DNA of 63,998 bases, counting the filler, from Jimgerdemannia flammicorona (taxonomy: Eukaryota): the NCBI GenBank assembly GCA_003990765.1. It is 3 parts of 3 records of this genome, joined end to end, with 100 filler letters (N's around TTAATTAATTAA, not from the genome) between each part and the next. Parts side by side here need not be neighbours in the genome. Positions count along the whole stretch, not along the records: positions 1 to 21,320 come from RBNJ01001482.1; positions 21,421 to 42,724 come from RBNJ01001483.1; 1 more part is not named here. The stretch is one strand, 5' to 3'. The position numbers were made by a program, and so were the translations under genes. Within the stretch, counting starts at the first letter, position 1, and the number at the start of each line of letters is the position of its first letter. The notes under the pieces were generated by a model. It was not told the DNA's origin, ran no database searches, and saw only the letters and a program-made list of their open reading frames with translations. Of this stretch, positions 1 through 63,998 are shown piece after piece.

Positions 1-650
1 CCCTCCCACCACTCTGCTCACAGATCTTTACTACCAAGCTGTGCCGTTGACCCCCCTGAGGACCCCAACCCACCCACCATCCAGTCAGCAGATCCCCCAA
101 CAGCCCCTCCCATCTTAATACCTTCTCCTGCAGCCCCAACCTCCGCCCCTCCTCAAATACAAAGAGCCAATGTCCTGCCAGGCCCACCCATACCGCTAAT
201 ACCCACCCTACAGTGAGCCACTGATTGCCTACACCACCTACAAGTCTAGATTCTAAATCTTCCCAGCGACCTCTCTCCCCATCTGGCCTCCTTTCAACCC
301 CCAGCCGGTCCCCAATAGCTATCCAAAAGTCCCCCAGCATCTCACATTCCCCCAGCCAATGTTCCGGCATTTGTACAAATCCCCCAGCCTGCCCAACGTC
401 ATAACACTCCTCACAATCCAGCTGACCACCATCCACCAGATGCCCAGAATGGAAGTTCAACATAACATTCCTCCGCAACATCCGCCACCACACTACCCAA
501 AATTTGGGAGGAAGCCATCGCTGTACCTCAGTACTCCAAGACCAGATCCCTGCCCAATCCCACTCCTCACTAATCCTCACCATCTGCCAACTGCTCGGCC
601 AAAGATCCTGGCCCATTCGCCGCTGACACTCCACTCCCACATTACCTAAT
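1..650 (-). mobile_element. LINE family B, 3' portion of ORF2 (runs off window start)
   Basis: Reverse complement aligns by eye to 50200-50790 of the family B copy; retains some CpG, so less decayed. Confidence 0.75.
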
Positions 651-1345
651 CTCTGTAGTAACTTTCTTAGATTATCGATGACCTATAGCAATGATTAGTG
701 CCTTATGTATCAGAAGTTTACTTTGAGACCCCAGAACCAGCAGAACATTTAATAAACAAGAAGTCCACTGAAATAAAGCTACTAGCTGGATTCAAACCTC
801 TCCCAGTTAGTTAGTCTAGTAATAGGCCCTCCATCCTATATAAGGATAGCTAATTCCTACCAATGCACTGATATAAGTTTGAGAAATTTTGATTAAGTAT
901 ATCTAGTCTTATGTTATCTAAGAACTCAACAAGGATATTAGTTCTTAAGGAGGGAGAGATGTAATAATTTCATAGTCATATTTAGTCTTAGTCATTTTTG
1001 TATCTTTTAGTTAGTCTTTTCTTATTATTTCTTAAATATTCTACTATGTTCTGCCACCTTCTACTTACTTAGAAACCTTCTCTCAGTACCTAGACACTAC
1101 TAGAATATTCTTATCTTTCCTTGGTATCAAGCATCCTATCTTAGCTAATTATAGAACCTTTTAGAACATTGCAGAATAGTATTAATCAGCTTTACTGAAA
1201 ACCTATTTCTTGGTATTTCTCTTTCTTTCCAAGATCCTTTCAGATTTTTCTTTTAGATCATGTATAAATATCCTTATTCTCTGCCTGAATAAAGCTTAGA
1301 ATATTTTCTCTCAGAAATTCTTCAAGAATACTTGAATCTTTAAGT
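651..1345 (+). mobile_element. 3' remnant of an LTR retrotransposon (PPT plus LTR)
   Basis: Polypurine tract AAGGAGGGAGAGA 947-959 directly followed by TGTAAT at 960; TATAAATA ~1263 and AATAAA ~1288. LTR end uncertain. Confidence 0.55.
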
Positions 1346-1359
1346 ATCTCTTTGAGCTA

Positions 1360-2260
1360 CTTTAGGCCAACTAGAATTTCCAGACTTAGCTACTTCCTCT
1401 TAAAGAAACTAGAACTGTTATAGCATTCTTCTCTCTCTATGGAACCAAGCTGAAGTTCTTTACTGCCTACTACCCCCAGACTGATGGTCAAACTGAGTAA
1501 ACTAATAGGACTCTCAAGCAGATTCTTAGCATCTTCTGCTGTTACAAGCAGAATGATTGAGATAAGTACCTTGTACATGCCAAGTTTGTCTATAATAATA
1601 GCTAACAAATCTCTATAAAGAAGACTCCATTCTTCCTGAACTATGGTCAACACCTAAGGACTCTAAGTACTACTACAAAATCAGCAATCCCAGTAGCTCA
1701 AGATTTGGCCAAGACCATTTCTGACCTTACCCAAATGACAAGAGATGCTCTTATAGAAGTACAGGACTATCAGGCCAAGTATACAAACTTGAAGTAAAGG
1801 GAAGTCTCCTACAATATTGGTGATATGGTTATGCTTAGAACAGACCATCTCCATCCAGACACCCTGGTATAACAACTAGTCAAGAAACTCTATACTAGAA
1901 GAATTGAACTATATAAGATTGTGGAAAAAGTCAGTAAAGTCAACTACAAGTTACAACTTCCCTATAATATTCAAGTACACCCAGTATTCCATATCAGCCA
2001 ACTGGTGGACTACTACAAGAATCTCTTTTCTGAATATACAGTTCCACCACTACCCCAATTAGGATCAATGATCATAAGAAATTTGAAATTGAGAAAGTAG
2101 TTGATTACAAGGTCCACAAATATCCCAAAACAGTCAAGTGGTTTTTTCTCATTAAGTGGAAGGGTTTCCCCACCCATAATACTATTTAGGAAAAAGAAAA
2201 AGCTTTAGAAAATACATGCAAAGCCCTCTAGGACTATATGGAAAAACTTACTCCCTAGCA
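1360..2260 (+). pseudogene. Ty3/Gypsy integrase C-terminus, GPY/F module and chromodomain (chromovirus), decayed
   Basis: Manual translation: TAYYPQTDGQTE*TNRTLKQIL, TPFFLNYGQH, YKLQLPYNIQVHPVFHISQL, EFEIEKVVDYK...FLIKWKGFP...*EKEKAL; several stops. Confidence 0.9.
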
Positions 2261-2929
2261 AAGAAAGGAACTATAGCTCTAAAGCTTAGAGCATATAGCA
2301 AAGAAAGAAGATACCATATATTTATCTGAAATATATAATACTGAACATTAACAGAAAAAAGGAAAACTATATCTAATCAACAAGAAAGATACTCAGGTGA
2401 AGAACAACTACCATAGTATAGTAAAATGTATTTGAATAACTCTATTTCATACTATCTATGTCATCTCTGCTAGATGATGATAGATGTTTTATATAAAACT
2501 TAGGAAAGCCAACAATATCAAAACCAATCTAAGTCTATCCAAGTAACAGATATTATTACTAAGAATTGTCTCAGATTACAAGAAATACTATTTCCAAGAG
2601 GTTTGAACCCCCAGCTGTAATAATAGGAGCCCTCACTCTAGACAAGGATGACCAGTTCTTGCAAATGCACCAATAAGATAAAAAAAAAAGAGGACCAAGA
2701 TCTGTCAACTCTGTATAACTACAACTGTAAGTAGCAATATCTTTGAAATCAGGATTTTCTCATGTGGACCAGCACATGCTCTACTTATAATAATAGATCA
2801 CACATTCTGCTGGAAAGTATGATCAAATTAAGTTCACACCAGACAGATGAATAAGTATAAATACCCAAGACAAGAATATACTGCAATCATTATCTCCCTC
2901 TCTCTCTACAAAGAAAAGATAAGACAAGA

Positions 2930-3756
2930 ATGCCTGCTATCTATCACTAAACTATCTACTATAGCCAGCCCCTCTCAAGTCAAGTTGACTGTCTCTTTGG
3001 ATATATCCAGGTTGCTATCCAAGGAAGGAACTGCCACTCTGAGGCCCTTAACCTCTTCAGCCAGAACCTAGAACAATATGTCCTTGACTACTATGAAGTC
3101 ATTAAAAAGTCCTACCTTACTACCAGCTACCTAGAGATCTGGTATAAATATAAAATTGGTCACCAACTTCTTCAACATACAAATAGCCTACCCACTGACC
3201 AGGTCTCAGACTGGACCCATCTGGATAGACATGAGCAAAGACTAGCTAAGAAGGTCTATCAAATCATATGCTATACACCTTTTGCAATCCCCAACCTCAA
3301 CTATATATAACTGAAGAACTTCCAGAACCTCTTCTTCCTGAGGTTGATGAGCTAGAGATCAAGGTAGCCCAAGATGCCAACTCCTGAATTACCCTCAAGT
3401 TTACTGACTACAAATCCCACTAGAGACCTCTCCTATATAACAACTCAGACCAATGGCTCCAAGGTCTCTCTGACCTCTTTGAAGGATCACCCATCCAAAT
3501 GGATATTCCCAGATATGAGGATCAAGAACCCTACTTGGATGGTCTCAACTACATTAGATGGAGAACCCCTATCTCAATACTCATACCAGTTCAAGAACTA
3601 TTTGCAGACCTCATTGACTTCTCCACCCTAGACATTGAACTATCAGCAACCACCCCTCTAGCTATAGGAGAAGTAGACAACAATACTGAGAAAGACTCTT
3701 CAGCTTTCTCTCCCCTGGTTCTCAATTTCAAAATCAATAAGGATATTGATTTCTAA
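2930..3756 (+). pseudogene. Extra 3' ORF (~275 aa, unknown function) of the chromovirus
   Basis: ATG 2930, long near-open frame MPAIYH*TIYY...EIWYKYKIGHQLL...RLAKKVYQII, one frameshift ~3330, stop overlapping the PPT; GTATAAATACCC at ~2855. Confidence 0.6.
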
Positions 3757-3767
3757 GAGAGAAAGGA

Positions 3768-6700
3768 TATAATAGAATAAATGAATGAGCAGACTTCTTT
3801 TGCTCAAACCATTTGGAGCAAGCTAAGCCACACAGATATCTTTTTGTGAAAAACAACACATTTTCAAGTTTTCACTTTGTCTATACTGGTGTACAAGGTG
3901 CAGCAGGAGTCTGGTAACAGTCTACAATAAGTTTCATCAAATTCTGTGGAGTTTTTATTAGATGGCAACCCAGGGTTCATCAAACTCTGAGCATTTGGAG
4001 AGAAGGAGGCCTGGCCTGGGTCTCTCCAAGAGTTTTGCAGTAGTGGCCAGGGCCGGTACTGAAGCTGGTGGAGCAGGTGGTCAAGGAAGGCAGACAGGTA
4101 TTGAAAGTTGGCACACAGTGATGGGGGGCAGGAGGGCAGCTACTAGGCCTATAGGGGTAGGGTAGGGAGGATGTAGTGTTGACAGGGGTAGGGGTCAGGT
4201 GATTGGCCAGGTGACTGGTCAGGTGACTGGTCAGGTACCTGCCAGGGGCCAGGGGTCCAGAAGTAGTATGATTGGGACTGATATTCCTGGGGCTAAGCCA
4301 GTGGCTGGGGTGACTGCTAGAGTGTCTGAGAATAAGAAGAAGGCTATGATGACAGCCGACTCCAGTGAACTGGTAGTGCACCCCTTCTTCCCCAAGTCAG
4401 TGTCAATATGGGCCATTTTGGTAAATTTTTTGGAGCTGGGAATGTCTACTAGAGAGGTCTTATGGCTAGTTGGAGAGGAGGTTGCTGGGGTGGAGTTGCT
4501 GAAGTTTATCCCATCAGCTGAGGTGGTTGAGATAAGATTTGTAGAGGAGAAGGAGATGGTGAAAGCCTTGGAGAAAGGGCTGATCATCAAGAATATCAAG
4601 GTTAACATGGTAAAGTGCCTGAGGTAGGACCCACATACTGTGCACCTAGTGATTGAGGGGCTGCTGACATTGGGGAGACAGGAGACTAAAGAGATTGTGG
4701 CAGAGGCATTGGGGGCTTTTAGTGAGATGGTCAACTTTGGGTTTATGTTCTGGGAGGGGACCAAGCTGAGGAATGGCAACTGTGAGGTAATGGTGAGGCT
4801 GGAAGGCAAGGAGGCCACAGGGCTAGGGAGGGACTGGCCAGAAGTGATTTGTATTAGAGGGCAGGAGTACAAGGTGTGGCAAAGAAAGGGTTCTGAACAG
4901 GAGGAGGAGGAATCACTGATCACTCTAGAGGAGAGAGAGGCTGCAAAGGAATTGTGGAAGAGGAGATGAGAGGAGTTTTCCAAGGACTGGATCTGGATTC
5001 TGATAGATGAGAGGAGGAAGAGGTGGTGGAGGGCAAACTGGGAGTGCCTACAGACAGTCCTCCAGGGCTCGAAAGTGGAGGAAGAAAAAGGGCAGAGATG
5101 GCCAAGAATCAGATGGAAGAGGTGGAGATGGCTGAGGTGTCCTTTTCACAACTGGGGGGTATGGAGAACTTGACTCATGCACTAGTGAAGGGGAAGTGGG
5201 CTGATAGAGAGGAGGCGAATGAAGGGGGCTTTGAGGAGGCTGTCAAGGTGGTGCCAGAGACTCAGATAGAGGATGTTCATATGGCAGGAGCAGCAAATAT
5301 TCATTGGGAATGTCCAGAGGCAGGTGAAGTGGTGTGGCTAGAGAAGGGTACAGAGGAGGATGATCTGGTGGATATGGCCTCTGATGTGTTGGCAGATAGA
5401 GAGATACTATAGGAACTGAGCAGGACCCTGAGGCCTGCCACTCCTGGGCCCCTGGTAATGATGGCTGATGACTGGTATCAGACAGTGCTCGAGGAATTAG
5501 CAGAGGAGGATATCAAAGAGGTGGATGTGTTTAATGGATCCCAAGAGGCCTGGGAAGGATTCCTCAATATAGTATTGCAGGGGCCGAAGTTGGTGATGGC
5601 AATGGTGGCAGCACTTCTGGATGATGAAGGATATGAGGTGGATGAGGACCATATGGCTGACATCAGGAAGGTGGTATCTGAGTGAGTGGACATCTTCTGT
5701 AGCAGTGTGAATGGAGCCTGCATCTGGAGGGTTATCTGTGAGGAACAGAAGGTAATAATCTGTGGTCGGGCTGAAAAGGTGGTGGCAATTCCAGTGGAGC
5801 TTTAAATATTTTTATTCATGATGATGAACAGTCTATGTATTTTATTGTTAAATATCAATAGTTTGCATGATGGAGTGAAGAGAAGGTGTCTATTTTGTTG
5901 GTTGAAGGTCAGGAGATATGATGGGCATATAGAGAGTAAGACTATGAGGATTGGGGCAGGAAATGGTATGAAAGTATAGGCTGGAATGAGCAAGTGGGCA
6001 TTTTGATTGGCTTGGGGAGAGGTGAGCTGACAGAGGTTGTGGTATATGGTGATCAATTGGTCTGGGGGAGATTGAAAGAAGGAGCTGGAGATAGACTAGT
6101 GGTCAGCTCTGTCTACCTACCAGCAGTTGGCAGAGAGCAAAACCAATGGGTGGAGGGTTGGCTGGCTTGGGGAGACTGAGATGAGGTTGGGTTGGATGTT
6201 CTGGGGGGGGACTTTAATATGATGTGTGACAGGACATTAGATAGATCTGATGGTGGAGTTGGTGTGGCTGTATCTGCTGGGCTCTCGCGATGGCTCCAGG
6301 TTGGGAGAGATATGGGATTGGTTGATGGGGTTTAATGACATTAAGGGGAGAGACCAGGGCCATTTACTAGGTGGCACCCAGTTGGTGAGGACTTGGTTGG
6401 AATGAGGATCGATTGGATTCTGATAGCAGAATGCTGGGGCAATGTATTGGATTCAACAGGAGTATAGTGGTGTTCTTGGTCAGATCACTGGGGAGTAGAG
6501 GTGTGTGGGAGATTTCAGACAATCAGTAGAGGTGGAGGTAGATGGCAACTCAATGTAGCACTACTCAAAAGACAGGTAGAGAGAGACTGATTTGTGGCAA
6601 TTGCAAGGCAGGAAGTGACATGGTGGAAGAACAGTAGACAGTCAATAGCACAATGGTGGGGGAAATTTAAACATTTGGCAGGTACTTATTGGCATGATGT

Positions 6701-9700
6701 AGGGGAGGTAGCTGGAAAGGAGCAGAAGGATAGAGAAAGGAGAATTGAACAGAGACTATGTTGGCAGCTGAAATCTCTGAAAGGAGAGAATTTATCAGAG
6801 AAAAGACACTCCCAGTTGGCCAAGGAGATGACTGAGTTGTAGTTGGATTTGAAGGCAGCAGAAGATAGGGTGGTAGATGGGCTATTGGCAAGACTGTGGG
6901 TGAGGTGGTTGGAAGAAGGAGAGTGACCCACTAAGTACTTGTTGGGAATCTTGAAGGCCAGGAGGGTGCAGCACAGTTGGGCTTCAGTGTTGTTGGAGGA
7001 TGGAGTTGAGGTTACTGGTATTACCAATATGCTTGAAGAGATCTCTGGTCAATGGTACACTCTATGGCAAGATGGAGGAGGACTGGTGGAGAGAGAGGCT
7101 TCACTGGAGGATAATGATAATTTGGTTGGCAGCTGGCCAGTGGTAGCAGTGCTGGAGATAGGTGGAGCAGTCATGGATATGGTGGCCCTTGAGGAGGTGT
7201 TGCAGGTTCTGTGGAAAGTGCAGGCTGGTTCATCACCAGGGGAGAATGGGCTGCCTTGGGAGTTCTGGAAGAAGTTTCAAGTTGAGTTTGGGGGATGGCT
7301 TATTGAAATGGCAAACTTTGTGTTGAGTGAAGATTGCTGGATTGGCAATGACTCCTTAGGGTTAGTCTTTCTGCTCTATAAGGAGAAAGGGGATTGACAT
7401 ATGTGACAGAACTGGTGGACAATTATGTTACTAAATGTGGACAGAAAGTTGGTCTTCAAGATTCTAGCAGGGAGAATGCAACAATGAATTGGCCAATTGG
7501 TGGGTGAAGAACAGCAAGGATTTGTGAAGGGAAGACAGATCCGAGACAGTACAGCTTGGGTGCAAAATGTTTTGGAGGGCTGTGGAAGCTAGAAAGTAGA
7601 TAGGAGAATGGTGTTCTTAGATCAGGAAAAGGTATATAATAGAGTGAGGTAGGACTATCTAGAGGCAGTTCTGCAGAAGGCGGGATTTGGTATAGTGGAA
7701 GCTTGGAAACTGATGGACCTGGTGTGAGGCTGCTGGGCTGCAGTACTAATGAATAGGTGGAGTGGCCTGGAGTTTGTCTTGGAGAGAGGTGTGCTACAGA
7801 GGGATTCTCTTTTACCCCTACTCTATATTTTATCCTTGGAGCCTTTATTGGTATAGCTGAAGAGAAGGCTCACCAGACTGAAGATGGCGGAGGTGGTCTG
7901 GAAGCTGGGGGCCTTCGCTGATAATATAGTGGTAGGGTTAGGCTGTATGGCAGATGTGGCAAGATTGCAGGAAGGGGTGGAGCAGTATGAGAGACTGGCG
8001 GGGGCGAAGCTGAACTGGGACAAGTGTGAGACTATGGAGTTGAGAGCTGATTTGGGAGAGCATGGACATTTTGAACAATTGGTCCATACTGGAGAGGCAG
8101 TTTGATATTTGGGTATTTGGTTCTCAGTATATGAGATAGTGCTGCCAAAGGAGTGGTGGTGTGGAATGATACAGAAGTGGGAGAGTGCCTTGGTAGGCTG
8201 GTCATGAAGAGGATTTTCCTTGGTGGAGAGGATTGTAGTTTTGAATGTATATTGGTTACTGAAGCTGTGGTATTTGGGGTACCATTTGGACTTCCCTAGT
8301 TAGGTGGTACAGAAACTGAAGAAGGTGGTGAAAGGTTGGCTGTGGCAAGGAAGAAGGCTGCAGATTAGTTGGGAGATAGTGGTGATGCAGATGGTAAATG
8401 GTGGATTGGGGCTGGTGGATTTTAGGAGGTAGCTGAAGGTACTTCAGGGCTGGTAGAGTTGCCAATTGGCAGAATTAGGAGTAGATGGTTGGGGCAGACT
8501 GGCTATGGACAATTGGGAAGTCAGGTTTTGTCCCTGTAGTGAGGTTTGGAAGAATATGTGAAGCTTGCTTCAGGTTGGAAGGGTTAGCAGATTGTGCTAT
8601 CAGGGATTCTGGTGGGGCATTGTGGAAGCTTGGCTGGCAATGGAACTCACAGGTCCAGAGCTGGGGAAAGAGGAGGACATGGAATAGTGATGGTGGTGAC
8701 TTGGAGATATTTATATTGGTGGCCACCAGCTGGCAGAATACTCTCTGTCTGGGGCAATGGAATGGACTCAGACAGATCTACTTGTGAGGTGGCTGGTGGG
8801 TTGGCAGAAGGCTGGGTTTGGGGAAGATTGAGAGTGAGATCAGGTTTGGGGATGGGGGACCTCATTGCTCAAGGTTGTACCATCTAAGTTCTGGGTGGTA
8901 TGGTAGAGATTTTTATGAAGGAATGTCATGCTGGGGTATAGGATAGGGTGGATGGATGCCAAAGGTGTAAGAGAATGTGAGTGGTATTGTGAGCTGGATG
9001 GGGGTGTGGTGTAGATGCCAGAGCATGTCTTGGTGGCATGTCCAGGGGTTGAGGGATTTTAGCAGACATTGGAAAGCTATTGGTGTGGTGAGAGTGAGCA
9101 AGCAGGGGGCCACACTAGTTGGATGGTCAAGCAGTGACTGGTGGGAGAGATTGGGGACATCTGGGGTGGCCTGGGCTGGATTATTGGCATCTGGGTCCTG
9201 ATGGTGGTGCACTGGCAATGGGTGTTTGAGAAGGATCCTTGGATAGAGATTGGCAAATTGGTGGAGTGATGGAAGGGGCTGCTTCTGGAAGTGGTGCAAG
9301 GGTGGTGGTATCAGGAGAAGAGGCACCAGTTGGGGGCCATGAGGAAGGTACAAGACATTGTTCTGAGAAGTCAAGGGCACCTAGTGCTTAGTGAGAAGGG
9401 GGTGTAGTGGAAAGAAGATGTGGATTGATGGGGCCTTCCTTGTTTTTGTAGTTATAGTAATTATCTGATAGGGTCATGTTGTATTAGATATTTCTATAAT
9501 AAAGGAGTCCAAGTGACTATAAAAAAAATAAATAAATAAATAAATAAATGAGCAAACAGATGAGACATGACAAGTGATTATGTGACCTACAATAATGTCA
9601 TCATATGATTGAGTACAACATACAAATAATAAATAATGAATGTAACAAATGATGCAAAACAATATGAAAAACAATATCCAGCTTATCTCTAGCAATCAGT

Positions 9701-10288
9701 ACCACAGTAACTATTGCCATAGTAGCTGGTCATTGTCTAGTAATTGAGATTCTGATTACAAAGAGTTTTTTGCCACAAACTATCTAACAAAGGTCATGAT
9801 CACAAACCTCACTATAGTTACCAAATTAGTTACTTATACTTAGTCAGAAATCACAGACCAACTTGTATAAATACCCCTCAGTTTCTATCTGAAATAAAGC
9901 AGTTTTAGTTCAGTCTTTTATATAAGAATCAAGTCCCCCCCCCACACACACATTCTCCTGAGTCTTAGTAATAACATCTAAGTGACTCTAGTATTTCTGA
10001 CTAAACTCTAGAAGCATAGCTAACTTCTGTCAAAACTGAGACCAGTATATAAATTCCAAAGACTTAAGTAAACCCAATTGAACCTGAATTCTAAGGTGAA
10101 TTCAGTCTATGCACAGTAAAGAAAAAAATCTTTGAAAGATAAGGTACTGCTACTACAACTACTTTCAAGCAAGCACTTCCTCAAACTGAAGGTTTCTTGG
10201 TACATATTATATACTAAGTCTCTAAGTAATACCTTGTTTCCCTAAGTATCCAAAGGATAAGAGAGGGATAGAAATAAGAGTTATTATA
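3768..10288 (+). repeat. 3' LTR of the chromovirus, split by a LINE (3768-3791 plus ~9555-10288)
   Basis: Follows PPT 3755-3767; TATAAT...ATTATA termini (mutated TGTAAT...ATTACA); colinear with LTR 45437-46229 (-). Confidence 0.85.
3792..9539 (+). mobile_element. Near full-length Tx1/L1-like LINE (family A), decayed: ORF1 ~3962-5790, ORF2 APE-RT ~5818-9460
   Basis: APE motifs LNINSL, GGDFN, RIDW, SDH; RT motifs SPGENGLPWEFW, QQGFVKGRQIRD, LDQEKVYNRV, FADN; A-rich tail; 14/15-bp TSD 3777-3791 vs 9540-9554. Confidence 0.92.
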
Positions 10289-10935: not shown

Positions 10936-10939
10936 AGAC

Positions 10940-13900: not shown

Positions 13901-16283
13901 ACCCCCATGGGTATCAGGGGGAGGTGGCTGAAGGAGGCAGCTAGGGTCCACTGAGGAGAAGCTGATAAGATGGCTGGCAGATAGAGGAGGTGATAGGTGG
14001 CATGGGCTTCTGCTAGGCTGGCTCAGCTTCTGGAGGATAGGGCTGGACTATTGGCCCTAGAGGGGGGGGGAGGACTGGAGATTGCTATGGGTATAGAAGG
14101 AGATAGAGGAGCTACAACTGGTGATAAGAGAGGAGGAGGAGGCATGGGTACAGAGTTTGGCAGCATGATTGTAGTGGCAGGGACTGGAGGAAGGGTAGAG
14201 GCCCTCTAAGTTTCTCATGAGGGCCCTTTGGACAAAAAGAGTTCAGCAGAGATGGGAGGGGGCATTGGATGCTGATGGACATCTGATGCATAGCATACAA
14301 GATATTCTCAAATTGCTAAAGAAGAAGTAGAGTGGTTTGTTGAGTGAGGAGGAGGGGGGGACTGATGAGGCTGCCATTGACCATACTTTGGAGAATTAGC
14401 ACCCACTATAGATAGGAGGACTGGACAGCCTGGTGTTACCAGTACAGGAGGAGGAGATTTGCCAGGTTCTTGCCATAACTTCACTGGACACAGTACTGGG
14501 AGAAGATGGTGGGAATCCTCAGTATATTAGAAGAATTGATGGCAATGTGTGACTTAGTGCTAGAGTTGGGGAGATGGGTGGGTGAGCAGGATCTGGGGCT
14601 GGTGGCACTACTTTATAAGGACAAGAGTAGGAGAGAGGACTGAAGGAACTAGTGGCTGATCATACTGCTGGATATAGACAGGAAGTTGGTTACTAAGGTG
14701 GTAGTGGTGAGGTTGTAGAGGGTGGCCCAGCAGGTGTTGGGGGAGGAGCAGTGGGGCTTTGTAGTTGGCTGGCTCATTAGAGATAGCACAGCTTGGGTGT
14801 ATGATGTTATTGAGGTGGTACAAGCCTGTGGACTAGATGGGTATCTGGTTTTTATGAATCAAGAGAAGGCCTATGACCATATCCAGCAGGTCTGGTTGGT
14901 AAAGGTACTGGATAGGATTGATATCTCTCAGCAGTTCCAAGTAACAATAATCAGTCTACCGGAAGAGAGTCAGGTGGTGCTCATGTGCAATAAGTACCAA
15001 GGGGGGGCTTTTTCTCTAGATAGGGGGATCTCTCAAGGGGACCTGCTGTCTCTCATTTTATATATGCTCTCATTGGAGCCATTGATAGACAGAATCTGAT
15101 GGACAAGTATTTCAATGCTCCTTTTTCTACTACCTTACCAGTCACAATGGTTTGGTAGGCAATCTTCTGAGTCCACTTTCCACAATTATTACCCCCTCTA
15201 TCTCAGGTTGGTTTGCTGTACCTGTTGCAGAGTAGTGGAAGGGAGGCAATGGTGATAAGTTGCCCCTTTATTGATATCAGATCAGTGTCTTCTCCACTTT
15301 TTCACAGTTTCTAGTACCTTCAGCTGCATCTGGAGTGCATTCGTTTTGGTGCAGCACCTTCTTCCTTTTGCCATCACCAACAAGGTACTGTCTTGGTGTA
15401 TCATGGGCTATGTAGGGAGTCAGCCGATCTTGGGTATCAAGTGCTCAGTATAGGTTACCTGTAGGTCCTTGATGTCTGTGGTGGGGCCCTCTGACTTTGA
15501 CAAGCTTTCCAGCAAGTGCAGTTCTGATGTAGGTGACTGCTTTTTGGGTATTGTCAGGATGGAAGAGGAGATGGCCATCACAGATAGGAGGAAGGGTGAT
15601 AATGGTGAACCAGTAGGGTGCCAGGCTGGGGGTGGTCATCAGGGCTGGGGCGGGTACTGCTTCAGTAGAGCCTTTTGATTGATGCAGAGCAGTTAGGTAG
15701 TAGGTGTCACTTTTGGCTTCTTTTGGCAATTTGGCAGGTTGTGCCCCAGTTATTGGAGGGGGTTGGGGGGCCCAAGGCTATCTATTTCAGGTATCTTGGC
15801 TGCACTTAACTAGAACTGGGAGCTGATATAGCAATATGATTGAGGCCTGCAGACTTGAGTAGTAGGGTATTGGGGGTCTCCTCCCACCTCACATATAAGT
15901 CCTTTACTCACCTTGACTGAGAGAACCAGACCCTACCCACTATAATGTACTTTGATGAGGGTTTTTCTTTGTCTATTATTCTCTTTAGGGTGGCAGGGGC
16001 TATTCTATTCAGCTCAGGTGTGGCCTTATACATATGTTGGGGTCTCAGGCATGCACTTTTGGTCATTGGCATATGGCTGGATTCCCCCTGGTGGTAGGGA
16101 GAGCATGGTGTATAGAATGAGGTGTGGGCCAATATAGGCCCTGCTGCACCTGGCATAATTAAGCTGCTGGACAATAGCTAGCCTGGATTAATAGGGGAGC
16201 AGTGTATGATAGGTGGTGGGGGAGGGTTTTGGCCTATATAGTCTAGGTTCTCTTCCAATAAAAATCTGTGGAACATTGAGTCC

Positions 16284-16318
<35 letters not shown>

Positions 16319-17985
16319 CAGAATCTGATAGAAGATAGTAGGGCTCTCAGTATTGGGCATTGGATGGAAAGTTGGAGCCTTTATAGATAACATGGTGGTT
16401 GGCTTGAGATTGATTGCTGATATAGAGGAACTCAAGATAATGGTGGAGTAGTATGAGGTATATTCTGGGGCTAAACTTAATTAGTATAAGTATAAGATGA
16501 TGGTGTTAGATAATGGCCTGGTGGGAGGAGATATCATTGGAATAATTATCTCTGCTAAAGAGGTAGTGTGATACCTAGGTGTTTATCTCTCAGTTTATGG
16601 GTCAGTCTTATCTAAGGCTTAGTGAGAGCAGTAAGTTGTGATCTGGGAGAAGGCCCTGTGGAGTTGGAGTGGCCATCAGATATCTCTAGCTGGGCATGTT
16701 TCTATTTTGAATATCTACTAGCTACTGAAGCTGTAGTATTTGGCTTATCATTTGGACTTTCCAGCCTGGGTGGTGAAGCAACTATTGAAACTAGCCAAGG
16801 ATTGGATCTGGACCAGGAGGAGGAGTCAGATTAGCTGGAAAATCTTATCTCTGCCAGTCACTAGAAGTGGTCTGGGGCTGGTTGACTTTCCAAAGAGGCT
16901 GCACTGCCTGAGAGTATAGTGGTTGAAGAGGGTGGTAGAGCTGAGAAATAGTAGCTGAGTTCTCCTGATGAAGAAGGACTGAGAGATGAGGTCCTCACCA
17001 AGAGGCTCTACAGATGATCTACTGTCCTTGGTCAGGCTTCAGAACAATGGTCTCATGTGGTATAGGGGATTCTGATAGAGAGTTGTAGATGGGGTATATC
17101 ATATTGGAATTCACTGGTAGAGAGATAAAGGGGAGATGCCTTGGGACCCTGTGATGTAGAGATGGGATCATATGCTATTAGTGGTATCTTGCTGCTTGAT
17201 TTCAATATTAGTGATGGGGTAGAGTGTCAGAGGGGGTTAGGACAGGATTTGTGGCCTGATGGATAGCAGCAGGGGAGGAGTGAGATTGGAATAGAGTCTG
17301 GGCCTAGAGTGCTGAGGTCAGATAATAGCTGCTACCAAAGTACTGAGTGGTCTGGTAGTACTTATTGTGGAAGAATGTTATGCTCAACTTTCACTCAGGC
17401 CATCTGGTTGAGGGGGGTAATTTTGACTGTGAGGAGTGCTTTAATGTAGAGCAGGAAGGGGGTTTTGTACAGATACTTGAACATTGGCTGAGAGAGTGTG
17501 AGGTGCTAGATGACTTTTGATTGGCAATAGGGCATCAACTAGGTATTATGTATAGGGAAGTTGATGTGAGAGACTGGTGGGAGAACTTGTGGGATAGATT
17601 GGTGGGGGGGGGTTGGGTCAGAGTGACTCACTTTGGGTTGAATTATAGCTGTATGAGTGGGGTTAGTGGGCCACTGGTTGTATATTTTTAAGGATGAGAG
17701 GAGACTAGATTTGAGGGTATGATTGCTGAGGTGGGAAGGGCTGATGGAGGATATCTTGATGGGCTGATGGCTTGGTTGAGATATGAAGAGTGGTTGGCAG
17801 CATAGTTTGGTTGAGAAAATCTGTTGGCAGAGTGGAAGGAGAGTTAGAATAGTGGGTAAAAGGGTATCTTTCAAGTATAAAGAGATAGAGGGGGGCCCCT
17901 CTAGGGGGATTGGGTAGTGAGAGGAGGTACTGTAACTATATCTATAGACTGGTAATAAATAGTGAAGTCTAAGTGACTTTAAAAA

Positions 17986-18003
<18 letters not shown>
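10940..18003 (+). mobile_element. Near full-length Tx1/L1-like LINE (family B), decayed, interrupted at 15101-16316
   Basis: ORF2 start MNSTTNIFSLNVNGL at 13070; GRDFN, SDH; RT QWGFVVGWLIRD, NQEKAYDHI, GISQGDLLS, FIDN; polyA 17981-18003. Confidence 0.88.
15101..16316 (+). mobile_element. Unidentified 1.2-kb polyA-tailed retroposed element, copy 1
   Basis: AATAAA and ~30-nt polyA; exact 13-bp TSD GACAGAATCTGAT at 15088-15100 and 16317-16329; second copy at 22776-23855. Confidence 0.85.
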
Positions 18004-18025
<22 letters not shown>

Positions 18026-18029
18026 TGTA

Positions 18030-19510
18030 GACTATTTATCATTATCAATAAAAATGTTGAAAGCTTTGCAGGAATTGCCACCCCTTCTCAGCCCTACTAT
18101 GGATAATTTTCTTTTATTTCTTACAGATTGTCCTCTAGATATGAGCCCCATTCACACTATTACAGAATGCATCCACCTACTTAGATGTAACTTTCCTTAT
18201 GTCAGCCATCTTATCTTCATCAATATCATACCCCTTATCATCCAGAAGCACTGCCACTATTGCTATCACCAACTTTGGTCCTTGTATAGCAACATTGAGA
18301 AATTTATCCCAAGTCTCCAGAGATCTATGAAATATATCCACTTTCTTGATATCCTCCTCTGTAAGTTCCTCAAGCACTGTCTGGTACTAGCTATCTGCCA
18401 TTATCACCAGAGGCCCAGGAGTAGCCGGCCTAGGGTTCCTACTTAACTCCTGTAGTAGCTCTTTATCTGCTGAGACATCAGAGGCCATATCTACCAGATC
18501 ATCCTCCTCATTGACCTTCTCCAGCCTCACTACCTCACCTGTCTCCAGATACTTCCAATGAACATTCACTGTCTCTGCCATATAGATGTCCTCCAATTGA
18601 GTCTCCAGTACTACTTTAGTAATATCCTCAAAACCCCCCTCTCTTGCCTTCTCGTTATTAGCCTACTTCCCTTTCACTGATATATGAACTGAATTCTCTA
18701 TATTATCCAGCTGTGAAAAAGACATCTCTGCTATCTCTACCTCTTCTATCTGACTCTTGGCCACCTCTGCCCTCACCATCTCTTTCTCTTTTGAACCCTG
18801 GAGGACTGTCTGTAGATATTTCTAGCTCTATTTCTGCTACCTCTTTTGCCTCCTATCCATTGAAATCCAGATCCAGTCCTTAGCAAACTTCTCTCATCTT
18901 CTCTTCCACTGTATCTTTGTAGCCTCTCTCTCCTCCAGAGTGAATAACAATTCCTCCCCCTCCTGCTCAGATCCCTTTCTCCTCTATATATTACACTCTT
19001 GACTATTAATATAAATTACCTCTAGCCAGTCCCTCCCTAGCCCTGTTGCCTCCTTGCTTTCTAGTCTCACCATTACCTCACAGTTGCCATTCCTCAGCTT
19101 GGTTCCTTCCCAGAATATGAAGCCAAAATCAACCATCTCACTAAAGCCCCCCAGTATCTCTGCTACAATTCCCTTAGTCTCTTACCTACCCAGCATTGGC
19201 AATTCCTCCACTACCAGATACACTATACATGGATGTACATCAGGTATCTCATCATCCCAACCTTGATGTTCTTGACCACCAATCCTTTCTCCAGGGCCTT
19301 CATCATCTCCTCCTTCTCTACAAAGCCAATCTCCACTGCCTTTGCTGATGGAATAAACTTCAGTGACTCTGCACCAGCAACCTCCTCACCCATAAGCTGC
19401 AGAACCTCTGGCAGATATACTCAGCCCCAAGAAGTTTGTCAAAATAGCCCACATTGATACCAACTTGTAAACAAATGGGTGCACTACTAGTTTACCTAAG
19501 TCAGCTGTCA
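18030..19510 (-). mobile_element. LINE family A ORF1 fragment
   Basis: Translations (MLEELTEEDIKKVDIF, EEDDLVDMASDV) match ORF1 at 4350-5830. Confidence 0.85.
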
Positions 19511-21110
19511 TTTTTTTTTTTTTTATAGTCTCTTGGACTTTGCTATTTATTACCAGTCTATTAAATATAAATACAGTACCCCCTCCCACTACCTAATCCC
19601 TCTAGGGGACCCCCCCTCCACACTTTTATACTTGAATACCATCTTATCACTAACTACTACAACTCTCTCCCCACTCTGCCCACAAATATTCTCTATTAAA
19701 TAATGTCAATGACCTCTCTGCAGACTCCATCTCAGCCACCAATCTATCAATATATCTACCATCAACCCTTCTCACCTCAATAGCTGCTCTCCCAAACCCA
19801 AATATCTCTCTTTCTCAAAAACAAACAGCCAGTATCCAGCTAGCCCCCCCATATAGCTAAAACTCAACTAATGGTGAGCCACTCATTTCTAACCCCCCTC
19901 TGATCAATTTATCCTTCAGATCCTCCCAATAATCCCTCTTATCATCCCCTCTCCTCACAACACCCAATTGATTTCTAACTGCTAACCAAAAGTCTCTAAG
20001 TATCTTATACTCTCCCAGTCAATATTCTGGCATCTGTACAAATCTCCCTTCCTTTTCTACATTATAACACTCCTTACAATCAAAGCTTCTCCCCTCTACA
20101 AAGTGGCCTGAATGAAAGTTGAGTATAACATTCCTCTATAGCATATGCTATCAAACCACTCAGTACTTAGGTGGCAGTCATTGCTATATCTCTATACTCT
20201 AGGTCCAAACCCCATTCCAGTCCTACTCCTCTCTAATATCCACCATCTGCCAGCCACTAGGCCATACATTCTGTCCCAACCCTCTCTGGCACTCAACCCT
20301 ATCACCAATATCAAAGTTAATTAGGAGAGTATCTCCCAACAATACTCAATCCTATCTCTATATTACTGGGCCCCAAGGTATCTCTCCTTCAGCCCCCTGT
20401 CAGCAAATACTAATGCAGTGTACCCTATCCACTACTCTCTATCAGAAGCCCTTATACCATATACATCCACTATTCTGAAGCCCAACTAAGGACAGTAGAT
20501 CTCCTGTAGAGCCTCTTAGCAAGAACCTCATCTTCTAGACCTTTTTCATCAGAGGTATCTAGCTATCACCCCTCAGTTCCACAGCTCTCTTCAGCCACAA
20601 GCTCTCAGACAATACAGCCTCTTCAGGAAGTCAACCAGCCTAAGACCTCCTTTAGCCACTGATAATGACAAGAATTCCCAGCTAATCTGACTTCTCCTCC
20701 CAGCCCAGATCTAATCTGTAGCCAGCTTCAATAGCCTCTTTACTACCCAAACTAGAAAGTTCAGATAATATACTAAATACCATAGCTTCAGCAGCCAGGA
20801 GATATTCAAAATTGAAACATGACCCACCAAAGATATGTAGTGGCCTTCCCAACTCTGTATAGCCTCCCCCCAAATAGCCACCCACTATTCTCACTAAGGT
20901 CTTGATAGGACTGACCCATAAATTGAGAGTTAAATACCCAAGTACTATACAGCATCTCCAGTAGGGACAATTGTTCCAATGACATCTCCTTCCACCAGAC
21001 TATTGCTCAATACTATTATTTCACACTTATGCCAGTTGAGTTTAGCTCCAGAGTGTACCTCATACCACTCCACTATTTCCTGGAGTTCCTCAACATCAGT
21101 AATTAATTTC
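19511..21110 (-). mobile_element. LINE family B 3' part with polyA tail
   Basis: PolyT 19511-19524 followed by the reverse complement of the family 3' end; similar to 16400-17980. Confidence 0.8.
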
Positions 21111-21320
21111 AGGAGGGGGATCGCTGGGAGGACTTCAAATCTCGGCTTGTGGGTGGGGTTGGGGACAGTTGGCTCACTGTAGGATGGGTGTTAGCAGTGT
21201 GGGTGGGGTTGGCGGGACATTGGCTATTCATATTTGAGGAGGGGCAGTGGTTGGGGTTGCGTGAGAAGGTTTTAAGGTGGGAGGAGCTGGTGGGGGATCT
21301 GCTAACCGGGTGGTGGGTGG
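21111..21320 (+). mobile_element. Less-mutated LINE family B 3' fragment at a contig end
   Basis: Similar to 50515-50720 but retains CpG; abuts the gap. Confidence 0.65.
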
Positions 21321-21420
21321 NNNNNNNNNNNNNNNNNNNNNNNNNNNNNNNNNNNNNNNNNNNNTTAATTAATTAANNNNNNNNNNNNNNNNNNNNNNNN
21401 NNNNNNNNNNNNNNNNNNNN
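21321..21420. other. Artificial scaffold gap (44 N + TTAATTAATTAA + 44 N)
   Basis: Six-frame stop linker within exactly 100 nt. Confidence 0.97.
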
Positions 21421-21875
21421 GACGGGCATAACAGGCAAGATGGGCATAACGGGCAAAACAGGCAAGATGGGCAACATGGGCAAGACAGCAAGACGGGCGA
21501 CATGGGTAAGACGGGCAAAACGGGCAAAACGACACGGGCAAGACTGGCAAAATGGGCAAGATGGGCAACACAGGCAAGACAAGATGGGTGACATGGGCAA
21601 GATGGGCAAAACAGGCAAAATGACAGGCAAGACAGGCAAGACGGGCAAGACAGGCAAGGCGGGTAACATGGGCATGACGGGCAAGATGGGCAAGACGGTA
21701 AGTCGGGCGACATGGGCAAGACGGCAAAACGATACGGGCAAGACGCGGGTAACATGGGCAAGACAGGCAAGACAGGTAAGATGGCAAGATGGGCGACATG
21801 GGCAAGATGGGCAAAATGGGAAAAATGACATGGGCAACTGGGCAACCGGGCAAGACGGGCAAGATGGGCAAGATG
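21421..21875 (+). repeat. 9-bp minisatellite (GAYGGGCAA)n
   Basis: About 50 degenerate units of GACGGGCAA/GATGGGCAA/ACAGGCAA. Confidence 0.9.
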
Positions 21876-22172
21876 GGGAGGCACTAATAGGGGTAGGCCA
21901 GGTGCACTAGATGCCAAGTACTTGAGGTGGTTGGGGCTTACAACCCATATCCACTCTTGGGTGGGGCAGGCTAGGTAGGAGCATCTAGTTACTTGGGCAG
22001 TGAGGTCACAACTCATATCCTAAAGGTGCTTAGATTGTTATTGGTTTGGAAATTGTAGTGTGAGAGTAGGGTGGGGTGAGATGCAGAATGTGGCTGCTGG
22101 TATGGCATGAGGATTTTAGATAGTTAATAAATGGGGCTCTGGCCTATAGAGGAAAAAAAAAAAAAAAAAAAA

Positions 22173-22775: not shown

Positions 22776-23855
22776 CTTAGGTTGGTTTGCTGTATCTGTA
22801 AGAGTATGATGTGAGAGAGGCAATAGTGATGAATTGCTTCTTTATTAGTATTGAATTAGTGTCTTCTCCACTTTTTCATAGTTTCTGATACCTTCAGCTA
22901 TATCTGGAGTATATCTGTTTTAGTATAGTACTTTCTTCCTTTTATCATCATAAATAAGATGTCATCTGGTGAATCATAGGTTATATATAAAGTTGGCTGA
23001 CCTTGGGTATCAAGTATCAGTATAGGTTATCTGCAGGTCTTCAGTATCTATAATAGGACCCTCTGAGCTTTCTAGTGAGTATAGTTCTGATATATATAAC
23101 TATTTTTTGGGTGAAGTCAGGATTGGAGGAGAGATGGCCATCACAGATAAGAGAAAGGGCAATTACAGTAGACCAGTAAAGTACCAGACTGGGAGTAGTC
23201 ATTGGAGCTGGAACAGGTACTATATCAGTAGGGCCTTCTGATTGGTATAAGGTGATTAGGTGGTAGATATTACTCTCAGCTGCTTTGGTGATTTGTAGAG
23301 TTAGGCCCTAGTCATTAAGGATAGTTGGGGGGTCTGAGGCTACTTAGATTAAGAATCTTGGCTATACTTAACTAGAACTAAGAGCTGATATGGCAATATA
23401 ATCAAGACCTATAGGCTTGAGTAGTGAGATATTAAGGGTCTCCTCTCATCTTATATATAAGTCCTCTACTTATCTTATTGGAGAGAACTAGGTTCTACTC
23501 ACTATTCTATACTTTGAGGGGAGTTTTTCTTTATCTGTTGCTCTCTTTGAGATGATAGAGGCTATATGAATTGGCTCAGACATGGTCTTATACTTACATA
23601 TGTTAAGATTTCAGATATATACCTAAAGTATATATTTATTACTCTCTAGTAGTAGGAAGAGCATAGTATATAGAATGAGATAGAGACAACTTTACTCTAC
23701 TGTACCTAGTATGGTCAAGCTACTGAACAATAGCTAGCCTAGGTTTAATAGGGGTGTAGTGCTCAGGGAGTAGTGGGGGAGAGTTTTGGCCTATATAGTC
23801 TAAATTTTCTTTCAATAAAATCTGTGAGACTTCAGATCTGTAAAATAAAAAAAAG
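22776..23855 (+). mobile_element. Unidentified retroposed element, copy 2 (more decayed)
   Basis: Colinear with 15200-16290, same AATAAAATCTGTG end and A-rich tail. Confidence 0.8.
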
Positions 23856-23859
23856 TTAA

Positions 23860-24300
23860 TTCAGAGATAAAATCACTTATTCAGGAGAAAGTTGTGATGG
23901 TTGATCTGAATTAGGAACAATTATCAGAAGATAGACATTTGATTGCAGTATCTGAATCTATTCCTGATATAATATAGTATTATAGTTTAGCAGTCATATG
24001 ATCTCAGTTGTATGATTACAAAAAGCACAGCTGTACAAATCTCTCAGCTGTACAGATTTCACAGATATACTGATCTCTCAACTGTACAATATGACTCACA
24101 GGAAAAGAAGTCTTAACTGCCATATAGCTAGCAAACTTGTATAAATATCCCTAGTATCTAGAGTGAATAAACCTCAGATTGAAATAGTTCAAGCAAAGAG
24201 GCAAGGAACTAGTAAGCCTGCAGGCAGATACACTTTGAACTCACCCACCCCTGCACCTGAGGATTCTGAGGAATCAAAGAAGATCAAGTATTCAAGATAA
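23860..24300 (+). repeat. LTR-like remnant
   Basis: TTGTATAAATATCC...AATAAA arrangement as in the other LTRs; CpG-free up to ~24305. Confidence 0.4.
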
Positions 24301-25790
24301 AGAAATCCGCTGCACTTCTGCCAGTACGCGTCCGCTACGTTACAATATATATAATAGGGCGCCACTCCCGATTTGGTTATATGTTTAATAACCTGCGTAT
24401 CAGACATGCCTCCTCTTGAAGGTGTCCGCAGCTGTCGCAATTTTCGTCGTGAACCCATCCAGCAGCCTTAAAATAGTCGACACATACAAAATCACGTCAA
24501 AGCTTCCAGAGACCGCTCAGAGAATAGTGAAAATTGGAAATGGGGAACCAGAAATGGAGAGGACCACCGAAAGAACACCCGCTGAAATTATCTTCAGTGA
24601 TGTCAGTGCATACAGCAGCTCGGTTCACCTCCGGTTTGTTTTACATCAGGCGGTTACAGTAAACTGGTGGTGGGATGGAAATTAGGAAACATTACATTTA
24701 TATAGAAATGCCGAATACAAACATTTCAGAAACATATGACAAAGCGTCCCTTCACATGGTAGAGAATTAGAAGGAGTGAGAATGGGTTTAGCTGGTGGTA
24801 GCATTCACGCTTCCAGGACCGCCGTTCGTGTTGAGTATATACGCGAAGGGCCGTTTATTGAACTATCAAAATGAATGGGTGGGAGGGTGTGCGAAGATTT
24901 CCCTAAATCGCGAAGTGGGATAGTGAACGAAGACGAAGTCGCGCTGTGGTCGATTGCTCTCCGGTTGACGAGGGCGCGGCTGCCGGTGAGCTTTATACAA
25001 GGTTTGTGGTCGATTGCCAAGGGCGTGACTGCCGGTGAGCTTTGTGCGTCCGGTGGCGTTGGAAGGGAGTAAAAAGAAAGAGAAAAAGGGTAAATGGATG
25101 GGGTAGCGCAAGAAGGATGGCATGATGGGAGGTCAACGTATATATATACATATGACGGAACGTTGAAGGAGCCTGATGGATACCACATGACTTTAAAGCC
25201 AACAAAATGGAAATTAATACTCCATCGCCAAGCACCGAAATGCCCCCCTACAACCCTCTCGGCTCACCCGCCAAATCATCGGCGCCAAAGTAATATCACT
25301 GCCCACACCGCTCACAGCGTAATCTATCGCGCCGCCAATACGTTCGTAGACTACATTCTCGCGTTTGTGATCCTGATGCCAAAGTTGACGTGCGTTTCTT
25401 GTTCGGTAATGATGCAATGGCTGTAACGGTCGATCTATGAAGATGAGAAAAATGCCCGGCTCGAATGGCGGCGACGGGAAATGGCAAGATGTAATTATGT
25501 GGTATGGTAGTTGATATAAACTACTTGCACAACGGATCTATTGCTCACAGTGTATTTATGTTGTGATTGTTGCTTATTTTTCTAATGAAGACCCGCCCAT
25601 CATTCTTAGTTCAACCTTAACTCTCCGGAATATTTCCTCACCACCCTTCCCACGTTTCACCACCAAGGAAGGTCAAATTCGCAAAATTGCAAGTATTTAT
25701 AAAACCTACATCGTCTCGGGCACCATCACCCATCATCTAGAGCATGAATGTGACCCGAAAAACGTCTAGGTACATCACCGCTACCTCACT

Positions 25791-45420: not shown

Positions 45421-45421
45421 T

Positions 45422-63626: not shown

Positions 63627-63627
<1 letters not shown>

Positions 63628-63692
<65 letters not shown>

Positions 63693-63925: not shown

Positions 63926-63984
<59 letters not shown>

Positions 63985-63998
63985 CTTTTTTTTTTTTT

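Follow-up and report, generated by a model that had tools for sequence, protein, structure and literature searches.

What has removed nearly every CG dinucleotide from the transposon-derived blocks in this stretch of the Jimgerdemannia flammicorona genome (the window, 63,998 nucleotides in all)? A preliminary description attributed the loss to a strong methylation-linked or repeat-induced point mutation (RIP)-like defence in a likely early-diverging fungus. The host, a soil fungus, does belong to such a lineage, the Mucoromycota, and its genome holds three DIM-2-type methyltransferase genes. The RIP half of the proposal fared worse: there is no one-strand clustering of the changes, a duplicated 2.6-kb sequence rich in CpG is untouched, and the composite RIP index rises above zero in only three of 24 one-kb windows. 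Instead, the decay is probably explained by chromatin-targeted DIM-2-type methylation followed by deamination, site by site.

CpG depletion and its borders

The window consists of three contigs with N-linkers between them, one at 21321-21420 and the other at 42725-42824 (Table 1), so the single depleted block reported at 1..24305 covers two unrelated pieces, of which positions 1-21320 are an entire contig. The depletion itself is clear, with 64 CGs against 1139 expected in 1-24307 (observed/expected, o/e, 0.056), 23 against 971 in 681-21100, 38 against 401 in 42825-51797 and none against 14 from 63051 to the end. The gene blocks are normal (982 against 935 in 24308-42724; 591 against 584 in 51798-63050), and non-coding DNA has CpG o/e ∼1 over kilobases. 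Emptiness is not uniform, as both the LINE fragment at 1-680 and the tandem array at 21421-21880 retain CGs; around the Ty3/gypsy-type remnant (960-2600) there are none.

The abrupt switches at 24308, 51798 and ∼63050 all lie inside contigs, while that at 42825 follows directly on a linker and is therefore a join rather than a genomic border. The border placed at ∼24305 sits 37 bp inside an LTR-like repeat ending at 24344, the last 37 bp of which retain five CGs. In the second transposon block the final repeat match is over by 51612 and the CG run starts at 51798; CG-free DNA at 51612-51797 thus continues past the identified element. Describing the loss as repeat-restricted is too broad, as another part of the genome holds a CpG-rich repeat that has escaped it despite its many copies.

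Table 1. Features of the window, with positions along the joined contigs.
Feature	Positions	Strand	Evidence
Contig G000:C1482, nested dead retrotransposons	1..21320	.	CpG o/e 0.04; self-similarity
LINE 3' fragment, less decayed copy within block	1..680	-	14 CG kept, o/e 0.39
Broken Ty3/gypsy-type pol remnant	1300..2250	+	SH3_Tf2-1, E 5e-15, stops read as X
LINE-type element, poly-A tail	3792..9530	+	Reference for 59 copies analysed
LTR-like copy A	9550..10288	+	0 CG
Artificial contig linker (N44, 12 bases, N44)	21321..21420	.	
9-bp tandem array, partly decayed	21421..21880	+	22 CG, o/e 0.70
CG-free transposon remnants, start of G000:C1483	21881..24307	.	0 CG vs 71 expected
Multi-copy LTR-like repeat	23850..24344	+	Last 37 bp with 5 CG
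Gene block, normal CpG (pectinesterase, U5 snRNA, bHLH, F-box gene)	24308..42724	.	Untouched control
Second artificial linker	42725..42824	.	CpG switch here = contig join
Second transposon block, G000:C1509	42825..51797	.	CpG o/e 0.095
LTR-like copy B	45439..46222	-	15 CG; other contig than copy A
Gene block, normal CpG, including RasGAP gene (best named match Bifiguratus adelaidae, 82%)	51798..63050	.	
CG-free tail: 15-bp array, multi-copy repeat (63267-63631), LINE end	63051..63998	.	

The direction of change had been read from an 'LTR pair'. The three motif pairs quoted for it are present (9850/45922, 10093/45680 and 10171/45547), but the two sequences lie on different contigs in opposite orientation and are therefore two copies of a family, not two ends of one element. 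An alignment of copies A and B over 674 columns shows 89 transitions and 12 transversions; 13 of the transitions fall at CGs retained only in the 45439-46222 copy. C-to-T change outside CpG, also noted earlier, is real. The ATTACA/ATTATA difference occurs at the end of the pair, and the LINE ORF2 frame (5820-9359; RVT_1 match, E 9e-14) carries 36 stops in 1180 codons.

Mutation spectrum in LINE copies of different age

The spectrum was compared across 59 LINE copies, 31 of them young, 14 of mid age and 14 old (13 of the last aligned). These three age classes were chosen by similarity to two queries, for which 40 candidates out of 1608 and 40 out of 1909 were scored. The order of C-to-T change was CG >> CA > CC > CT. 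Counting sites already altered in the source element, change per C at CG was 0.38, 0.63 and 1.14 in the young, mid and old classes respectively (0.30 in the young class at 116 strict sites). The corresponding values were 0.039, 0.062 and 0.117 for CA, 0.020, 0.039 and 0.084 for CC, 0.010, 0.020 and 0.028 for CT, 0.0055, 0.013 and 0.022 for T>C, and 0.0033, 0.0061 and 0.0085 for transversions. All rates climb together, and their ratios to transversions are similar across classes (CG about 90-130, CA 10-14, CC 6-10, CT about 3), CG being targeted about 8-10 times harder than CA. The share of CG sites lost rises from ∼45% in the youngest class to ∼90% in the oldest, and to nearly all in the blocks of the window. 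The most decayed copy (non-CpG C-to-T 0.163) was unaligned and left out of the rates and strand tests, so that the old class is slightly understated.

Pure CpG decay scaling with age had been named as the pattern that would favour passive deamination. Rates do scale across the age classes, but the decay is not purely CpG. The trend is seen between classes, not within them: per-copy CG loss did not correlate with private background changes in the young (rho 0.19, p 0.34) or mid class (rho 0.01), a comparison of low power. Counts of CA/CC changes were overdispersed among copies (variance/mean 2.1-3.5, p ≤ 0.01). The per-site list gave no evidence of edge protection at LINE 5' ends.

A spared CpG-rich repeat as a same-age control

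A CpG-rich repeat of 1.5-2.6 kb, located at G000:C5953:3400-6100 and present in at least seven copies at 85-94% identity, has a CpG o/e of about 1. Seven copies of one block contain both a CpG-rich part and co-copied transposon DNA, providing a control of the same age. Changes in the CpG-rich part were few (CG 51/1781, CA 20/2038, CC 19/1606, CT 12/1431; transversions 1.1%) compared with those in the transposon part (CA 74/507, CC 27/196, CT 69/923; transversions 1.65%). At CA/CC the transposon DNA mutates ∼13 times faster (pairwise Fisher, CA+CC, p 6e-26), with transversions not distinguishable (p 0.17). Transitions are strongly enriched in transposon DNA relative to adjacent DNA of equal copying age, in line with the preliminary description. 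Within the CpG-rich repeat CG change is 2.6 times transversions, as against ∼90 times in the LINE. For the repeat, neither L122 nor L129 matched Rfam, and none of seven short frames matched Pfam. A 341-bp duplicate at 87% identity is also spared, and a 1.3-kb gene paralogue pair at 76% identity has CpG o/e of 1.12 and 1.15.

Hallmarks of RIP

Classical RIP, in which premeiotic pairing recognizes duplicates and mutates them in bursts, would here have to act over many mild rounds. It shares with our data the concentration of C-to-T transitions in repeated DNA, CA as the top non-CpG context and sharp borders. However, 91.9% of Neurospora RIP clusters are reported as one-strand (PMC7296669), and no such clustering was found in the young and mid classes. 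Adjacent CG changes fell on the same strand in 764 of 1501 cases in the young class (null 762) and 480 of 995 in the mid class (null 501); only the old class showed a weak excess (516 of 970 against 488, p 0.022), which would favour RIP. The per-copy TG fraction gave a chi-square of 16 against a null of 25, whereas simulated one-strand bursts averaging two changes gave 88; in the young and mid classes, bursts of even two are rejected. Private CA/CC changes showed no same-strand excess in the three classes (p 0.30, 0.80 and 0.67), with weak spatial clustering in the old class (p 0.03).

Nor does duplication as such appear to be the trigger, as the multi-copy repeat keeps its CGs in at least seven high-identity copies. 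RIP too spares some repeats, and GC-rich duplicates are described as less RIP-prone in Neurospora (PMC7296669); the spared repeat could therefore be excused. The dominant target is CG rather than CA, and the indices over 1-24307 (TpA/ApT 0.96, substrate index 1.39) do not pass the thresholds of >2 or <0.7 quoted in PMC7296669. Genome searches with PF00145, P0121 and PF12047 returned only DIM-2-type and DNMT2-type loci, with no RID/Masc1 gene and no canonical DNMT1 or DNMT5 among them, but PF00145 missed one of the three known paralogues. High RIP indices are reported for some Entomophthorales (PMC10515909). A survey assigns no_rip to each of its 30 Mucoromycota, one of them a J. flammicorona assembly (PMC12543289). 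Taken together, classical RIP is an improbable source of this decay.

DIM-2-type methyltransferases

The three paralogues (on C8187, C11271 and C3657) have intact PCQ and ENV catalytic motifs. Their best solved-structure match is 9bap/9baq, which we take to be Neurospora DIM-2, and a top relative carries the name Dim-2 in Apophysomyces. P0121 contains PF12047, PF25423, BAH and PF00145 domains (RFD and BAH under the curated cut-off), and C11271 was the sole match in the PF12047 search. P0122 matches 9baq at E 6e-39 compared with 1.5e-25 for DNMT1; P0124 separates the two only narrowly (9e-35 against 1e-32). By these matches the paralogues are predicted members of the DIM-2 subfamily, closer to DIM-2 than to DNMT1. 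A TDG/MUG-like exon, a fragment of a TDG-like repair gene, was found at a contig end; the idea that CG changes so fast because T:G repair has been lost is therefore unsupported.

Origin of the decay

In the explanation we favour, DIM-2-type enzymes would methylate transposon-rich chromatin, strongly at CG, more weakly at CA and CC and least at CT. Methylated C would turn to T singly and on both strands alike, throughout the time that a copy resides in such chromatin. CG sites would be lost first and CA/CC would decay later and more slowly, with the target set by chromatin domain and not by duplication. This draws together the mutation spectrum, the confinement of that spectrum to transposons, the scaling across age classes on both strands with greater CG loss in the older ones, the lack of strand clustering and the three genes with intact motifs. 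Methylation of the transposon DNA, the role of these enzymes in it, guidance by H3K9 methylation and the spontaneous nature of the deamination are presumed. Some observations count against the methylation and deamination account. Among the 10 public runs listed, neither bisulfite nor long-read sequencing was represented. CG loss runs at ∼90 times transversions even though a TDG-like gene fragment exists; in the human germ line the figure is roughly 30-fold. The copy-to-copy overdispersion, the failure of CG loss to track background within classes, the weak same-strand CG adjacency and CA/CC clustering of the old class, and the choice of classes by similarity to two queries weigh in the same direction.

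In a less likely alternative, at least one DIM-2 paralogue is an active mutator, which would deaminate its target cytosines singly, as part of its catalytic action, in vegetative nuclei. Such a mutator, comparable to that proposed in Zymoseptoria, would be RID-independent, mitotic, CG-first and faster than spontaneous 5mC decay. The CG/transversion ratio, very high despite the TDG-like gene, the three paralogues and the overdispersion between copies would suit it, a Dim2-dependent mitotic mutator has precedent (PMC8016269), and every footprint result that fits methylation and deamination fits it equally. Slow division with low copying error would, however, yield the same ratio by time-dependent deamination, and the order of mutation equals the known order of methylation, so that an extra mutator step is unnecessary. 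We regard as doubtful an active mutator of this kind across Endogonales, independent of RID, with expanded DIM-2 paralogues deaminating CG first and then CA/CC in transposon chromatin, without clustering and at far more than the spontaneous rate, and with some CpG-rich multi-copy islands shielded; if true, genome defence by mutagenesis would extend beyond Dikarya, and RIP might have arisen from such a system. Editing of the cDNA strand by a cytidine deaminase during retrotransposition could account for the slight sense-strand excess of CG>CA over CG>TG (746 against 603), but both strands are affected, clustering is absent, loss still grows with age after insertion and CG-free DNA reaches past the identified element at 51612-51797, making this very unlikely. 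Least probable of all, and largely refuted already, is that CG mutates genome-wide with genes keeping it by selection, or that assembly or contamination created the pattern. The window does consist of joined contigs, and the lower transversions of the spared repeat (1.1% against 1.65%) might reflect selection; yet three switches lie inside contigs, kilobases of non-coding DNA retain CpG, and the spared repeat lacks Pfam and Rfam matches and shows a CG excess far below that of the LINE.

Comparison with known systems

The process is of a long-known kind, in a lineage for which we found no description of such decay in the open-licence literature on Endogonales. Clutterbuck (2017) is cited for CG deficiency with transposon hypermutation in Basidiomycetes and some lower fungi (PMC11451569), a signature attributed to methylation and deamination (PMC4352252), and for Tuber melanosporum CpG is ranked first and CpA second (PMC11451569, PMC4352252). 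Like our case, these involve CG loss by C-to-T change confined to transposons, while duplicated genes escape, and the genome concerned is large and rich in repeats; the Basidiomycete cases, however, are tied in these sources to Masc2/DNMT1-class enzymes, whereas here the enzymes are of DIM-2 type and a CA/CC layer is measured. Closer to the host, in the same phylum, 5mC has been measured on transposons of Phycomyces blakesleeanus and Rhizophagus irregularis and is CG-rich (PMC11258239, PMC8647823); Phycomyces transposons carry CG and CHH methylation, and the species has DIM2 and DNMT1 (PMC11258239). The cited passages describe methylation rather than the near-complete CG erasure seen here; according to them, no signatures of RIP were detected among Mucoromycotina (PMC11258239, PMC8647823).

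Neurospora crassa RIP resembles the present decay in its irreversible C-to-T changes, which kill transposon reading frames, and in CA as top non-CpG target (PMC7296669), but here one-strand clusters are lacking, CG dominates, a multi-copy repeat of high identity is spared and indices are mostly sub-threshold. A RIP-like appearance in early-diverging fungi can thus occur without RIP hallmarks. Two tests that need sequence only tell the cases apart: whether changes in young copies cluster by strand, and whether duplicates of equal age are spared. The methylome predicted for J. flammicorona is CG >> CA > CC > CT on transposons, with the spared repeat unmethylated. Should the rate exceed that of spontaneous deamination, DIM-2 itself would be a mutator of long standing, a point of interest for the origin of RIP.

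The nearest parallel in enzyme type is Zymoseptoria tritici, where Dim2 is reported to methylate transposons in the order CG > CA > CC >> CT, the order of mutation here, and where the effect is likewise confined to transposons and adjacent non-coding DNA (PMC8016269). There, however, >98% of C-to-T changes fall at CA and CG is spared (PMC8016269), opposite to our result, in which, as read from the sequence, CG is the main target and CT is low yet above background; this opposition too counts against the explanation we favour.

CpG depletion and its borders

The near-absence of CpG and its abrupt return, as claimed in the preliminary description, are borne out by observed and expected counts: 64 against 1139 expected at 1-24307, 38 against 401 at 42825-51797 and 0 against 14 at 63051-63998, with normal values at 24308-42724 (982 against 935) and 51798-63050 (591 against 584). 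The depletion is real. Because the window joins three contigs through linkers, however, what had been described as a single unit (1-24305) spans two unrelated pieces, 1-21320 being the whole of contig G000:C1482; likewise the ‘LTR pair’, whose quoted motifs are present, is not a pair from one element but two copies on different contigs. The first block is also not wholly empty of CG, which persists at 1-680 and 21421-21880. The depleted blocks hold remains of retrotransposons (see table).

Features of the window
Feature	Position	Strand	Remarks
Ty3/gypsy remnant	1300-2250		In CpG-depleted block
LINE-type element	3792-9530		RT domain; 36 stops in 1180 codons
9-bp tandem array	21421-21880		~49 units; 22 CG kept, many units in TG or CA form; related array at L015:3196-3803, elsewhere in the genome
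112-bp tandem duplication	28330-28555		Directly before the pectinesterase gene
Pectinesterase gene, secreted-looking	28724-29875	+	PF01095; plant-wall enzyme
U5 spliceosomal RNA gene	32606-32724	-	RF00020, 73.6 bits
F-box gene	39500-40765	-	76% identical paralogue on G000:C3307 (L090); CpG normal in both
Reading frames looking like G-domain genes	58848-61759	-	Presumably AIG1-type; 36-bp repeat at 61042-61225; 623-aa frame without Pfam match

All three reported borders (24305, 51800 and 63050) fall within contigs and lie ~40-220 bp from repeat edges, on either side. At 24305 the repeat extends to 24344, its terminal 37 bp retaining 5 CG; across 12 copies examined, the last 60 bp hold 5-6 CG in three, one in one and none in eight. 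At 51800 the last repeat match is over by 51612 and CG is back from 51798, and at 63050 the nearest high-copy repeat begins ~220 bp beyond, past a 15-bp array. A 341-bp duplicate (87% identity; 62734-63056 and L112:1501-1837, a locus elsewhere in the genome) stops exactly where CG disappears at 63050, and both copies retain most CG. Borders that track repeats at this distance would be better explained by a chromatin domain than by a precise edge of homology. LTR-like copies inside transposon nests have 0-1 CG left in the body; a short copy with CpG-normal DNA on both sides (L042, G000:C2490:6932-7310) keeps 16 CG in the scored span, and small isolated copies of this sort may have escaped decay or be younger.

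C-to-T changes in LINE copies

The window copy yielded 30 LINE copies (40 of 1608 candidates scored) and a CG-richer query copy 29 more (40 of 1909 scored). Transversion distance separated an old from a younger group, and the copies clustering closely with the second query were set apart as youngest (31 young, 14 mid and 14 old copies, 13 of the last aligned); these classes partly reflect query choice, and the fragmented assembly may have collapsed copies that are almost identical. Changes per C in young, mid and old copies were 0.38, 0.63 and 1.14 for CG, 0.039, 0.062 and 0.117 for CA, 0.020, 0.039 and 0.084 for CC, and 0.010, 0.020 and 0.028 for CT, alongside 0.0055, 0.013 and 0.022 for T>C and 0.0033, 0.0061 and 0.0085 for transversions. 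The order is CG >> CA > CC > CT, with even CT at ~3 times transversions, confirming that changes extend beyond CpG, and the context-to-transversion ratios hold over all three classes. Two results count against a simple clock: among copies of one class, decay fails to follow private background changes, and copies are overdispersed. One copy (L033, G000:C218:30050-30844) has a non-CpG C-to-T rate of 0.163, ~2 times its class norm, with few transversions, possibly reflecting locally heavier decay.

Strand clustering and duplication

Classical RIP is very improbable here, as three tested features fail. Clusters made up wholly of C-to-T or wholly of G-to-A changes account for 91.9% of those left by RIP in Neurospora (PMC7296669); young and mid LINE copies, in contrast, lack such one-strand clusters, adjacent CG changes sharing a strand in 764 of 1501 (null 762) and 480 of 995 (null 501) cases respectively. 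Per-copy strand fractions were not overdispersed (chi2 16 against a null of 25; simulated bursts averaging 2 gave 88), and private CA/CC changes (203, 201 and 216 per class) showed no strand excess. Old copies have a weak same-strand excess at CG (516 of 970 against 488, p 0.022).

Duplication alone is insufficient to trigger decay. Of 2810 pairs from an all-against-all comparison of loci, 20 had both members at CpG o/e 0.6 or above, and one of these led to a spared CpG-rich repeat (G000:C5953:3400-6100). At least seven copies of it are 85-94% identical across 0.9-2.6 kb, and many others are at about 70%. CG-free flanking transposon DNA was copied together with it, so the two parts provide the same-age control that the preliminary description had called for. 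Since copying (seven copies), the spared repeat has changed at 51/1781 CG, 20/2038 CA, 19/1606 CC and 12/1431 CT (transversions 1.1%), and the transposon part at 74/507 CA, 27/196 CC and 69/923 CT (7.5%; transversions 1.65%); transitions are thus enriched in transposon DNA. With a multi-copy repeat spared and strand clustering absent in young and mid copies, the RIP half of the original proposal is not supported, with the caveat that Neurospora RIP is itself weaker on GC-rich duplicates (PMC7296669). A 1.3-kb gene pair at 76% identity also keeps its CG. The spared sequence spans 2.6-2.8 kb (L121:1300-4300; G000:C5953, ~3200-6200), and its copies (L118, L119, L122-L125, L129 and L130), mostly flanked on both sides by CG-free transposon DNA, escape decay; it has no Pfam or Rfam match and may be functional, a second caveat to the duplication result.

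Methyltransferase genes

The RasGAP exon in the window has its best matches in Mucoromycota (Bifiguratus adelaidae first, at 82%), in keeping with the proposed early-diverging fungal host, and two methyltransferase exons match, at 100% identity, proteins that carry the label Jimgerdemannia flammicorona. The genome carries three DIM-2-type paralogues (G000:C8187, C11271 and C3657), each with intact PCQ and ENV motifs and with CpG at normal levels. Their closest solved structure, by a narrow margin for predicted protein P0124, is 9bap/9baq, which we take to be Neurospora DIM-2. RFD and BAH domains match predicted protein P0121 weakly, and among 10 of its 150 relatives looked up most are from Mucorales and Glomeromycota, one named Dim-2. 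Two further exons resemble DNMT2 in their motifs, and a TDG-like exon is present. No RID, DNMT1 or DNMT5 was recovered by searches of which the PF00145 one missed the known C11271 paralogue.

Mechanism and comparison with other fungi

The simplest account, and probably the right one, is that DIM-2-type enzymes methylate transposon chromatin and that the methylated cytosines then deaminate site by site, the methylation being read from its mutational footprint. This footprint is compatible with spontaneous and enzyme-driven deamination alike. An active mutator deaminating enzymatically is rather unlikely; in its favour, at 116 strict sites in young copies, 44.8% of CG is gone, i.e. 0.30 per C or ~90 times the transversion rate, above the human ratio of roughly 30.

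For DIM-2-type methylation, the LINE mutation order equals the order in which Zymoseptoria Dim2 methylates TEs (PMC8016269), and in Phycomyces, TEs are methylated at CG and CHH (PMC11258239). According to reviews (PMC13297926, PMC7862722), DIM-2 occurs in Ascomycota and Phycomyces, and RID chiefly in Ascomycota. RIP signatures are reported as undetected in Mucoromycotina (PMC8647823), and a kingdom-wide survey of scaffolds >50 kb scores 30 of 30 Mucoromycota, one J. flammicorona assembly among them, as no_rip (PMC12543289); high RIP indices are reported, with caveats, in some Entomophthorales (PMC10515909). Our search of open-licence literature found no paper on such CpG-first transposon decay in Endogonales; Clutterbuck 2017 (cited in PMC11451569) extends it, by its title, to ‘some lower fungi’. 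The outcome is somewhat RIP-like, yet it is not a member of RIP and belongs to methylation-linked transposon decay, a known kind of which J. flammicorona is a further instance: as in its LINE copies, TE decay in basidiomycetes and Tuber is CpG-first (PMC4352252).
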